Below, in pieces: positions 9,855 to 57,746 of a stretch of 64,000 nt of DNA (the first letter of the stretch is position 1; each line of letters starts with the position of its first letter). The position numbers were made by a program, and so were the translations under genes. Where the stretch lies: the NCBI GenBank assembly GCA_963699545.1, contig CAVOUE010000003.1, forward strand, positions 256,001 to 320,000, read 5' to 3'. This DNA is from Nitrospirota bacterium (GTDB lineage Bacteria; Nitrospirota; Thermodesulfovibrionia; Thermodesulfovibrionales; UBA9159). The notes beneath the pieces were generated by a model, which was not told the origin of the DNA, did not search any database, and saw only the letters and a list, made by a program, of their open reading frames with translations.

Positions 9855-11460
9855 ATGAAGAAAAAGATTCTATGGACGGGCGGCATACTTGTTGCCGTGC
9901 TCCTTGTCGTTTTCATCGGACTGAGCATCGCTGTAAAGAATTATCTCAAGAGCGATACGCTGAAGGCCCTGATCATTCCAAAGGTGGAGGAATTCACCGG
10001 AAGGAAGGCAGGCGTAGACCGGATAGACGTATCGCTCTTCAGGGGCATAGCGGTCAAGGGGATACGTCTCATGGAGCAGGACGGAAAGCAGGAATTTGTG
10101 AACGTAGGGGAGTTCGTCCTGGAATATCGCCTTTTCCCCCTTCTGAAAAAAAGGCTCGTGATAAAGAGGATCGACCTTGTCTCGCCCTCTGTCCGACTGG
10201 TAAGGGAAAAGAACGGCCGTTTTAATTTTGCCGACATCACGGAAAGGAGCAAGGAAGCACAGAAGCAGCCCACGCCCGGAGCTGCCGAAGAAAAAGGACT
10301 TCCTCTGTCTGTGGAGAACGGACAAAATATCGGTTCGGGATGCGAGGGTGACCTTCATCGATGCAGAGGGCGCCTTGCCTGCGATAACCTTCGTCTCCGA
10401 CATCGATCTGAGGCTGACTGCAGAGAGAGGTCTGGCCAGCCCCGAGGTATCGGGCAAAGTCGTGGTGAAAGAGCTGACGATGAAGAATGACGGCAGTGAG
10501 ATAAAAAGCACCGGGACCGTCACCATAAAAGAGAATGCAGTGGACTTCACCCTTACGGCCGCTATGGCGAAAGAGACAATAAGATTCTCCGGAGAAGTAA
10601 CGGATTACATGAAGAAGCCCGTTGTCCGCATGGATATTACCGCTGCCGAACTTGACCTGGAAAGACTTATTGCCATTTCGGAAGGGACGAAAAGAACAGC
10701 AAAGCCCCAGGCCGTGAAACGTGAGCCCCCTCCTCAGAAGGAGAAAGGGACGGGGAAAGAAGAAAAAACTGCCGGGCTGACCGCTTCGGGTGAAGCAAAG
10801 GTTGCTGCCGCGAAATACAAGGGATATGTCCTGAAGGATTTCGCAGCCCGCTACAGTTACTCGGACGGCAATGTCACCATAAGCCCAATAAGCACCGGTC
10901 TCTCAGGCGGCAAGGAGGCGGTGGTGCAGGGGACGGCAAAAGGGGAACTCAGGCTTTCCGTGGCCGGGGAGAGCGCTGCCGATTCGGTCAAGAAGACCCT
11001 CGCGGGAAAGCTCACCGCAGACTTGAACAAGTGCGAGATGATCGAGACAAAGATCAGCAGTGCCATTGCGCTCTTCACCGGAATAAAGGAGCTCGCAAGC
11101 CCGAAGTTCGACGCAGTACACTTTCTCCTTGCCATCGGTAACGAGAAGATAGCCCTGGACGGCACCATGACCTCAAGCCTGATAAATCTCAATCCTTCCG
11201 GGACAGTCTGGTTCGATAAGAAGATCGACGTCATCGCAGACCTCAAGGTTGCGCCAGGTCTCGGTGGCAGGATCGTTTCCGCCCAGTTCACACGTTACAT
11301 AAAGGACGAGAAAGGATGGACTGTCATTCCCCTCAGGATAACCGGAACGACGGACAAGCCCTCCGTCGGTCTTAACCAGGCAGCGGTGGGCAAGCAAATC
11401 GAAAAAGGGGTAACGAAGGAGATGGAAAAGCGGCTATTCAAAGGGATCTTTGGGAATTAA
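9855..11460 (+). CDS. AsmA-family protein, one frameshift near 10317
   Basis: N-terminal anchor, LFPLLKKRLVI..LVSPSVRLVREKNGRFNF, C-terminal IPLRITGTTDKPSV; ORFs 9855..10490 and 10228..11460 join. Confidence 0.8.
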
Positions 11461-11476
11461 TAACCCGTTAAAAACC

Positions 11477-11495
11477 GGGGACACATCCCATTTTA
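11477..11495. repeat. REP-like hairpin repeat, left end of RAYT element
   Basis: GGGGACACATCCCATTTTA, inverted relative to the copy at 12217-12244. Confidence 0.85.
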
Positions 11496-11508
11496 TTATG
11501 CTTATTTG

Positions 11509-12180
11509 TCATCGCTGTTTCTTTCTCGGCCGTCCAATAGGCAAGGCAGCAAGCCTTTTCCCGAGATTGCGCTCGATTTCCTTTACAAAGTTGTCTGTTC
11601 CTAACGGTCGGCCTGTTCTTGCGCTCTGCCGGATGTCTTTCATCTCCTCTACAGGAATGCTTGTTTTTATGAATTCAATATAATCGCTCCGTTGAATTTC
11701 AGGAAACAGCTCTTCTCCCAAGAGAGGATCCTGAACAAGGCCAAAATGTGCACGGGCGCTGGAATATGGATAATCCTCGGAGTTATCAACGACCGTTGCA
11801 CGGACTGGATTTTGTTCTATATAGCGGGCAACAGCCCAGAGATAAGCTTCCTGATCTACAACACATGAGTGATATCTGCTTTCCCAGAGCCGCCCCGTAC
11901 GCCGATACTTCCTGTTTATATGCTGGGCATAGCAGAGGGTTAACCCCTGCATCATTTTCTGAAGGGACACCTCCGAAGAGGGTTTTGCAAGGAGATGTAC
12001 ATGATTGGTCATGAGGCAATAGCAGATGATAGAAGTATCCCATTTTTCTGCATATCTCTTCACCAGGTAAAGGTACACAGCCCTGTCTTCCGAAGTAAAA
12101 AATACATCCCCTCGATTGTTGCCTCTCTGAACAATGTGATGTGGGAATCCCGCTGCAACAGCCCTCGCTATTCTCGGCAT
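11509..12180 (-). CDS. REP-associated tyrosine transposase (Y1_Tnp, RAYT)
   Basis: HHIVQRGNNR, YCLMTNHVHLL (HUH), GRLWESRYHS, RYIEQNPVRA (catalytic Tyr), YPYSSA, C-terminal GRPRKK. Confidence 0.92.
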   Translation of the reverse strand: MPRIARAVAAGFPHHIVQRGNNRGDVFFTSEDRAVYLYLVKRYAEKWDTSIICYCLMTNHVHLLAKPSSEVSLQKMMQGLTLCYAQHINRKYRRTGRLWESRYHSCVVDQEAYLWAVARYIEQNPVRATVVDNSEDYPYSSARAHFGLVQDPLLGEELFPEIQRSDYIEFIKTSIPVEEMKDIRQSARTGRPLGTDNFVKEIERNLGKRLAALPIGRPRKKQR

Positions 12181-12215
12181 ATGGAAAGTCTACATGAGAA
12201 AACTACCGGCGTCAA
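12181..12215 (-). promoter_or_regulatory. Apparently leaderless sigma70 promoter of RAYT
   Basis: TTGACG (12215-12210), 17 nt, TAGACT (12192-12187), 6 nt, ATG 12180. Confidence 0.6.
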
Positions 12216-12216
12216 G

Positions 12217-12244
12217 AAAAATGGGATGTGTCCCTATTTATTTC
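12217..12244. repeat. REP-like hairpin repeat, right end of RAYT element
   Basis: AAAAATGGGATGTGTCCCTATTTATTTC; near-identical to 57723-57750 and 24549-24576. Confidence 0.88.
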
Positions 12245-24201: not shown

Positions 24202-24367
24202 CCTGATTATTCAGGAAGAGCAAGGTCATTGGAGTCTCACCCGTCCGAGTCATGATACGTACCCCTTCTCTGCTGTGCCGTCGTCCATACACCTAAAAGA
24301 CTCTGTCCCAATGATCGCTGTTGTCCGCTCTTGCGGACCGGCACACAACCCGACGTCTTGCCCTTTT

Positions 24368-24576
24368 GAATAAAATGGGGACACATCCCATTTTCCTTTA
24401 TCTCCTTCGCCGTATCTATCTTCAGCCACCTGGCCTCAGGGGGGTTCTATAGTCTTATTAAGGAATGTGCTTCAAAGTTAACTTCTTTTTTCGGCTTAAC
24501 CCAAAACAGGGCAAGCGCAAGCCTTCGCACCTCAGTTGTTTAACTCCTGAAAATGGGATGTGTCCCTATTTTATTC
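24368..24576. mobile_element. Non-autonomous REP-doublet (REPIN/MITE-like) element
   Basis: 28-bp terminal inverted repeats 24368-24395 and 24549-24576 (27/28 match) containing the RAYT-end motif; ~153-bp unique interior. Confidence 0.8.
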
Positions 24577-24625
24577 TATTGTCTTGCCGGGAGACGGACA
24601 CTTCCCCCACCCATAAGCAGGACAG

Positions 24626-57596: not shown

Positions 57597-57746
57597 TAAA
57601 TAGGGACACATCCCATTTTATTAGCGCAGGAATCTTCTATTGTAGCCTTTTGGTGGTCAAAGAACAGCGAGTGCTGTTGCGCTGGGCTTCATTTACCACA
57701 GGCTTCTGAGAGGCAGTGATTTAAAAATGGGATGTGTCCCTATCTA
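57597..57746. mobile_element. Non-autonomous REP-doublet (REPIN/MITE-like) element
   Basis: 23-bp terminal inverted repeats 57597-57619 and 57724-57746 (22/23 match) matching the RAYT-end motif; ~104-bp unique interior. Confidence 0.82.

Follow-up and report, generated by a model that had tools for sequence, protein, structure and literature searches.

A probable TIRtron-type transposase element and its dispersed end repeats in a Nitrospirota genome

Does a Y1 transposase gene framed by inverted repeats, with two further pairs of the same repeat nearby, represent an undescribed mobile system or a known one? We address this question in a window of 64,000 nt from a Nitrospirota bacterium (GCA_963699545.1, contig CAVOUE010000003.1, positions 256,001-320,000 of the forward strand; genome 3.04 Mb). 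A first-pass annotation had described an HUH/Y1 gene between inverted hairpin repeats at 11477-12244 and the same inward pairs at 24368-24576 and 57597-57746, and had proposed an undescribed RAYT/REP family, possibly of cassette-capturing or cassette-shuffling type. Exact repeat cores stand, facing inward, at all three places (Table 1). On present evidence, the element is known in kind and its repeat family is unusually rich; it is not an undescribed cassette system.

Table 1. Positions of the element, its satellites and associated repeats (window coordinates unless a contig of the source genome, G000, is given).
Feature	Position	Strand	Basis or remark
Terminal inverted repeat downstream of the transposase gene	11468..11494	+	core GGGACACATCCC 11478-11489
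HUH/Y1 tyrosine transposase, TIRYT type, 223 aa	11509..12180	-	motifs, Pfam, predicted structure
Sigma-70-type promoter TTGACG-17-TAGACT	12187..12215	-	6 nt upstream of start codon
Terminal inverted repeat upstream of the transposase gene	12218..12244	-	core 12223-12234
Core of ~195-bp repeat family Y, interrupted by D2	24260..24365	+	78% over 108 nt to G000:C3:242347-242240
Satellite D2, inward repeat pair round a 165-nt interior	24368..24576	.	27/28 nt complementary repeats; cores 24378-24389/24555-24566
Inverted copy of the family Y left end, adjoining the D2 right repeat	24576..24608	-	88% over 33 nt
Satellite D3, 150-bp MITE-like deletion derivative of the element	57597..57746	+	between mutL-like and miaA-like genes (names from translations); cores 57603-57614/57729-57740
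Decayed remnant of the element's 5' end within D3	57615..57718	+	nhmmer and protein profile
Family Y copies	G000:C3:242151-242420, C3:388362-388555, C12:120887-121077, window 24260-24608, L014		
Family A copies (73 bp)	G000:C5:352284, C5:354781, C5:233333, C5:308242, C3:796797, C4:87610, C12:93034, C3:646587		8 copies
fdhD hotspot	G000:C4:86350-91250 (L092:850-5750)		

The element and its end repeat

The HUH/Y1 gene is present as annotated. Its product matches Pfam Y1_Tnp (PF01797, E 3e-18) and carries the motifs NHVH, W-E (LWES), YIEQNP and SS (YPYSS), followed by C-terminal helices and a conserved GRP tail. H60, H62 and Y120 are invariant across 29 aligned sequences. A single-sequence search of the PDB with the protein gave no match; a profile search gave matches, the best being E. 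coli TnpA-REP (4ER8, E 1e-6). The predicted model (pLDDT 90) places three C-terminal helices at residues 161-206, with no separate structural match listed for them, and Pfam finds no HTH domain in the 223 residues. The gene is single-copy in the genome.

A promoter-like sequence is likewise present, located just inside the upstream repeat (12215-12187). The promoter scan by itself is at chance level (1 found against 1.3 expected), but 19 of 21 elements (20 two-ended relatives and the window element) share the arrangement TTGAC-17/18-TAnnnT-5/7-start. Judged by this geometry, the transposase transcript is probably leaderless. The downstream repeat starts right behind the stop codon of an AsmA-like gene at 11460, and the outer edge of the upstream repeat adjoins the tctA stop codon. 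The AsmA/DUF748-like gene (9855-11460) is itself divided between two overlapping frames, 9855-10490 and 10228-11460, which may reflect a frameshift. An Rfam scan of the window returned one tRNA and nothing else.

The element ends form a perfect 17-bp inverted repeat, one on each side of the gene, and the outer AT-rich part of the downstream repeat is degenerate. Exact copies of GGGACACATCCC number 6 in the window and 32 in the genome (0.43 expected), the most among the 390 genomes searched, this genome being also less fragmented than most. With up to two mismatches allowed, the window count rises to 19, whereas shuffled sequences average 8.2 and never exceed 17. We accepted 38 copies genome-wide, namely the 32 exact ones and 6 of 15 one-mismatch matches chosen by flank context, the 9 others being left out. 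The profile of these 38 copies extends from about -10 to +18 of the core start, giving an end of ~28 bp with an invariant 12-bp core and AT-rich flanks. The DNA on either side of the copies is a little richer in AT than the genome (0.485 and 0.491 versus 0.521). The longer motif of the first-pass annotation fits four of the six window copies; the copy at 11478 lacks its AAAT part.

The described hairpins are present but weak, with only a 4-bp invariant stem (-3 to -6.4 kcal/mol). When a longer stem was examined for compensatory changes, 2 of 18 tested pairs reached p < 0.01, in differing registers and without consistent covariation. A hairpin this weak and without consistent covariation suggests that the end is recognized by sequence more than by shape. 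All eight positions of the consensus GGGGWSAS fit in 14 of the 32 exact copies, and the remaining copies deviate at the first base; window positions 11477-11484 are a full match. GT[AG]G occurs at the hairpin foot in 2 of the 32.

Gene and repeat belong to one dispersed family, as had been proposed. Of 21 near-full-length Nitrospirota-type relatives, hand-picked from 68 related loci, 20 possess both ends. Within the class, 228 of 390 genomes contain the core, and a search for the gene was positive in 79 of 381 (E <= 1e-60); among the genomes with a close homologue, 51 of 52 contain the core (E <= 2e-84, a cross-count by hand with the cut-off set afterwards).

Class, distribution and residence in the lineage

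From these sequence features, we consider it probable (about 0.8) that the element is a TIRtron/TIRYT with a dispersed family of end repeats and not a RAYT of the GTAG-REP type. The claim of an undescribed system gives way here, the TIRtron passages of Di Nocera 2013 (PMC3733652) having already named Y1 genes framed by terminal inverted repeats, often GGGGWSAS, as TIRtrons or TIRYT. According to the same passages, GGGGWSAS occurs in some but not all published terminal repeats, and TIRtron repeats are also dispersed as singles, dimers and groups. The present element shares the Y1 gene between inverted repeats at fixed distance, the GGGGWSAS-type core, and a moderate family of singles, dimers and groups. 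It differs in that its repeat and its Nitrospirota host group are absent from those passages, which likewise make no mention of the recurrent left-end stump and the lone-end polarity of this family.

A second classification points the same way. Subclass 2.1, as characterized in the relevant parts of Quentin 2018 (PMC6006769), combines NHVH, W[EQ], YIELNP, SS and a C-terminal extension with the lack of REPs, has an HTH in 20/20 TIRYTs, ranks second in size among the Y1 groups (14.9% of strains), and probably equals the TIRYT/TIRtrons of Di Nocera. The present protein resembles this subclass, which corresponds to RAYT Group 1, in NHVH, W[EQ], Y-x-E-x-NP and SS, in length (223 aa versus a median of 238), and in its C-terminal extension, lack of GTAG REPs and low copy number. 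It departs from the subclass as there described in having YIEQNP in place of YIELNP and no Pfam HTH match.

The source genome contains a second TIRYT-type gene of 282 aa with an HTH tail (Pfam) at G000:C6:294031-294879 (L101), bounded by its own GGGGTCAG-type inverted ends. A separate left-end remnant at C2:31850-31976 consists of a variant core, a promoter and ~23 codons.

The fold, the catalytic HUH/Y core and the occurrence of a short repeat as singles and dimers are shared with E. coli TnpA-REP (4ER8). Unlike classic REP/RAYT systems (groups 2 and 3), however, the repeat lacks the GT[AG]G foot, its stem has only 4 bp, and exactly two repeats frame the gene; the NCBIfam model for classic RAYTs, NF047646 (REP_Tyr_transpos), scores 73.6 bits against a cut-off of 80. 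The IS200/IS605 profile NF033573 also scores below its threshold (24.9 versus 55 bits), and that family is set apart by YxxxQ instead of YxxxNP, a short TnpA instead of 223 aa, and non-inverted subterminal hairpins instead of inverted ends. For prochlorosin clusters, Laurenceau et al. (bioRxiv 10.1101/2020.03.09.984088) propose that an enzyme of subclass 2.1, together with fragments of it, diversifies neighboring accessory genes, a point the authors leave open; the cargo there differs from that found here. Our literature search, which covered mainly the main text of openly available papers, returned no biochemical study of a TIRYT/TIRtron and no cassette or defence system of this type.

The flanks of 19 elements are mutually unrelated, with the exception of one pair. 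Relatives about 90% alike, by contrast with this turnover between species, have the element at the same asmA-tctA site: a contig of run X1 covers window 11125-12244, and two ~90%-alike contigs cross the element's other end by ~28-30 letters, below the 31-letter threshold. Together, unrelated flanks between species and a common site in close relatives indicate an element that is mobile between lineages and stable here.

Such stability could also mean domestication. The gene would then be immobile in this lineage, and the host would keep the repeats, REP-like, as RNA hairpins (terminators) or protein-binding sites. A single-copy gene at one locus in ~90% relatives fits a settled rather than a jumping element, and the cores of D3 are perfect although its interior is only 65% identical to the element. 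In addition, dimers directly follow stop codons, and at one orthologous site they stand in place of a terminator-like hairpin, so some may serve as terminators. The broader distribution argues the other way: the spread over 79 of 381 genomes is patchy, the transposase query finds no match in either genus relative, several genomes have 2-4 transposase matches, and the flanks change between species. Group 1 is moreover described, in the part of Bertels 2017 (PMC5581495) that treats it, as the most IS-like of the true RAYTs. We regard domestication as rather unlikely, though better placed than the alternatives below.

In the suggested comparison of empty and filled sites, none of the three window sites yields a clean pair or a definable target duplication, since the genus relatives have intergenic DNA that cannot be aligned with that of the window. 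The mutL-miaA gap measures 5 nt in G002 and holds unrelated DNA in G001 and G004, and the asmA-tctA neighborhood was not recovered in the five relatives tried. By eye, the mutL-like/miaA-like gap at L069 (G001:C41) contains an unrelated inverted-repeat element of ~200 bp where the source genome has D3.

Lone ends and their neighbors

In a genome-wide catalogue of pairing, 30 of the 38 accepted copies are not in inward pairs. Among pairs of neighboring copies within 5 kb (n=17), 9 are tandem, 4 outward and 4 inward, and predicted ORFs occupy 11 of the 13 non-inward intervals. Many lone ends adjoin genes of toxin-antitoxin or nuclease type (VapBC, MazEF, HigB, BrnT, ParE, HicB, AbiTii, HNH, NERD, DUF4928, T5orf172).

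This predominance of unpaired ends, and the ORFs between them, would be expected if the Y1 protein cut a single end together with DNA on its inner side and rejoined it elsewhere, so that lone ends move or delete accessory genes. One-ended transposition by IS91/ISCR and ISEcp1 is a functional parallel. Several features of the flanks agree with such mobilization. Inner flanks are common to 28 of 703 copy pairs and outer flanks to 4 of 703, although decay of two-ended elements would likewise leave common inner flanks. At C4:90867 and L221, the genes next to the outer edges are truncated. Tandem duplication of the outer segment, reaching as far as the core, affects 3 of 38 copies of this genome and 11 of 76 copies of relatives, compared with 0/38 for the inner side and 16/3800 for shuffles. 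A 1273-bp unit of two genes, one of them NTP_transf_8, is 97.7% identical between G000:C4:88810 and C5:353578 and begins 8-9 nt outside the core. Its far end, however, is the 73-bp repeat of family A, and it lies in a hotspot of fdhD 3'-end duplications, which means that another system may have moved it.

In the fdhD hotspot, the fdhD 3' end and a short linker are repeated ~5 times. Each repeat precedes a different small module (VapBC, an NTP_transf_8 pair, a Gp49-like pair, a BrnT pair), and the junctions begin with a common ACCTGA motif; by its layout, the hotspot looks like a separate site-specific integration array. Five of the eight family A copies lie directly behind the TIR core, and one is ~3 kb from a split tyrosine-recombinase gene (C5:305144-305652). 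Family A is possibly a recombination site.

Comparison with other genomes weighs against one-ended mobilization. The duplicated unit, the one passenger followed, has 29 homologous loci in other genomes, and at none of them does the repeat lie within 200 bp of the matched part, some of these loci being partial or near contig ends; cargo without a recombination site at its homologous loci is also unlike integron-like cassettes. The passenger locus L133 contains the end motif of another TIRYT family. Of 21 repeat loci, 7 have toxin-antitoxin genes within 1.5 kb, compared with 3 of 20 intergenic sites chosen at random (Fisher p 0.28, not significant), a test of little power at these sample sizes; without inward pairs the count is 7/17 (p 0.14, loci grouped and scored by hand). 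On these two results, the capture or shuffling of cassettes suggested by the first-pass annotation is not borne out. We therefore hold one-ended mobilization to be unlikely.

In five of 31 junctions, those with at least 90% identity and a clear break, the break falls at -10 to -14; a sixth junction of at least 90% identity is out of register and was left out. These break positions also led us to abandon an earlier proposal in which the AT-rich outer segment was target DNA selected by pairing. Also rejected was the 21-kb inward pair C3:774795/796000 as a composite element: in 5 relatives its contents form a patchwork, and in none of them are the outer flanks joined. A further long pair spans 17 kb (C3:646561/663783).

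In its most far-reaching form, the one-ended reading has the lone 28-bp end cut 10-14 nt outside the core. The end would take with it a variable length of inner DNA, from promoter stumps and other repeats to entire toxin-antitoxin or nuclease genes, and would frequently insert at the foot of an end already present. With dozens of such ends, a genome would possess a distributed, integrase-free means of building and shuffling accessory-gene arrays. We consider this version more doubtful still.

Satellites, dimers and a proposed mechanism

D3 consists of the left repeat, a decayed promoter region, ~21 decayed codons and the right repeat. Its interior (57615-57728) is collinear with the element's own left end, with 64 of 99 nt identical (65%), and scores above all 300 shuffles. 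An nhmmer profile built from the interiors of 20 relatives aligns model positions 41-98 with positions 44-101 of the D3 interior (E 0.001 among 38 inner flanks, E 0.38 genome-wide), and a protein profile matches at residues 3-22 (E 0.012 among 18 frames). A far less decayed 127-bp unit of D3 type is found in two other genomes (L062 and L068), compared with 126 bp between the D3 cores. The L068 genome has a second copy, L067, which is cut by the contig end and has the same interior with another upstream flank; L033 is another internal deletion. By collinearity and profile matches, these data show D3 to be a MITE-like deletion derivative, a decayed left end.

Under the definition of bacterial MITEs in Di Nocera 2013 (PMC3733652, relevant passage), D3 is comparable as a 150-bp non-coding unit that has terminal inverted repeats, descends from an autonomous element and is of a type present at several loci. 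It is unlike them in that the presumed mobilizer is an HUH enzyme. Inspection of its flanks by eye, where no empty site could be aligned, showed no target-site duplication. Left-end fragments often stop near codon 19-23 (L062, L065, L067, L068, L009, G000:C2 and window 57615-57718). This may mark a preferred internal break in a sample biased by a search pattern at residues 11-18.

D2 sits between convergent HAD-like and tgt-like genes (names from translations). Its interior (24390-24554) has no homologue in its own genome, the first 91 loci or the element ends. The third short inward dimer of the genome, at G000:C3:495470, has an interior unlike the element and everything else searched. Against 389 class genomes, with at most 2 candidates scored per genome, both interiors gave chance matches of 38 nt or less. 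All 4 relatives with a match at the D2 site are without the repeat there, and none aligns closely enough for a junction to be defined. In run X1, a joint that skips the D2 interior was not counted, its shorter side measuring just 21 letters.

D2 lies within a rearranged copy of family Y, of which other copies occur at C3:388362, C12:120887 and L014. Family Y is MITE-like, ~195 bp long, with imperfect terminal inverted repeats, and its ends resemble the TIR core.

Dimer interiors vary in other genomes as well. They range from 14 to 206 nt in 80 of at least 121 metagenome loci, some spacers having shrunk to 14-31 nt. One orthologous site has no dimer in L221 and dimers with different short spacers in L183 and L205; two 77-bp dimers in L006 have a common interior. 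On the metagenome contig L178, two 85-86-bp dimers and a lone end lie between segments of 0.8-1.3 kb; two of these segments nearly match one another in inverted orientation (87%). REP dimer spacers may vary in sequence and size, as noted in the corresponding passage of Di Nocera 2013 (PMC3733652), so variable interiors are no new trait.

The claim that the satellite interiors resemble neither the transposase nor each other survives for D2 but not for D3. The first-pass annotation had named decayed RAYT interiors, and repeats fixed across relatives, as outcomes that count against its model. Both outcomes are seen in part: one of the two window interiors, that of D3, is such decayed sequence, and the element's site is the same in ~90% relatives. 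Conserved paired ends with exchangeable interiors thus appear very improbable as a cassette system: the interiors of the three short inward pairs are mutually unrelated, two of them matching nothing in their own genome or the 389 others, but the third is decayed transposase, none of the three pairs contains an ORF, spacer variation is already known for REP dimers, and related dimers either keep their interior (L006, L067/L068) or shrink. What hints of cassettes there are concern unpaired ends elsewhere in the genome, not the interiors of the two satellites.

For the preferred TIRtron/TIRYT reading, we propose the following course. The transposase would be transcribed from the promoter just inside one end, and autoregulation could act through the end beside the -35 box. 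The protein most likely recognizes the ~28-bp end by sequence and would nick single-stranded DNA through its tyrosine at a predicted position ~10-14 nt outside the core, the zone suggested by the junctions. The cut DNA would be joined to new DNA, with the two ends able to act separately. Binding and cutting of this kind are modeled on the chemistry of TnpA-REP as given in part of Corneloup 2021 (PMC8266576).

Over long times, these reactions would spread whole elements, deleted stumps (D3), dimers with drifting spacers (D2, G000:C3:495470) and lone ends. The lone ends would survive chiefly in variable regions, since these tolerate deletions and insertions. The GRP tail, which we take to resemble an AT-hook, may be suited to the AT-rich flanks.

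The element is ordinary for its class, and its value is that of a test case. With an end that is defined, a cut zone that is predicted and a mini-element that occurs naturally, this genome makes the use of inverted ends by a single-strand HUH enzyme directly testable. If lone ends do move neighboring genes, they would represent a new route of accessory-gene turnover.
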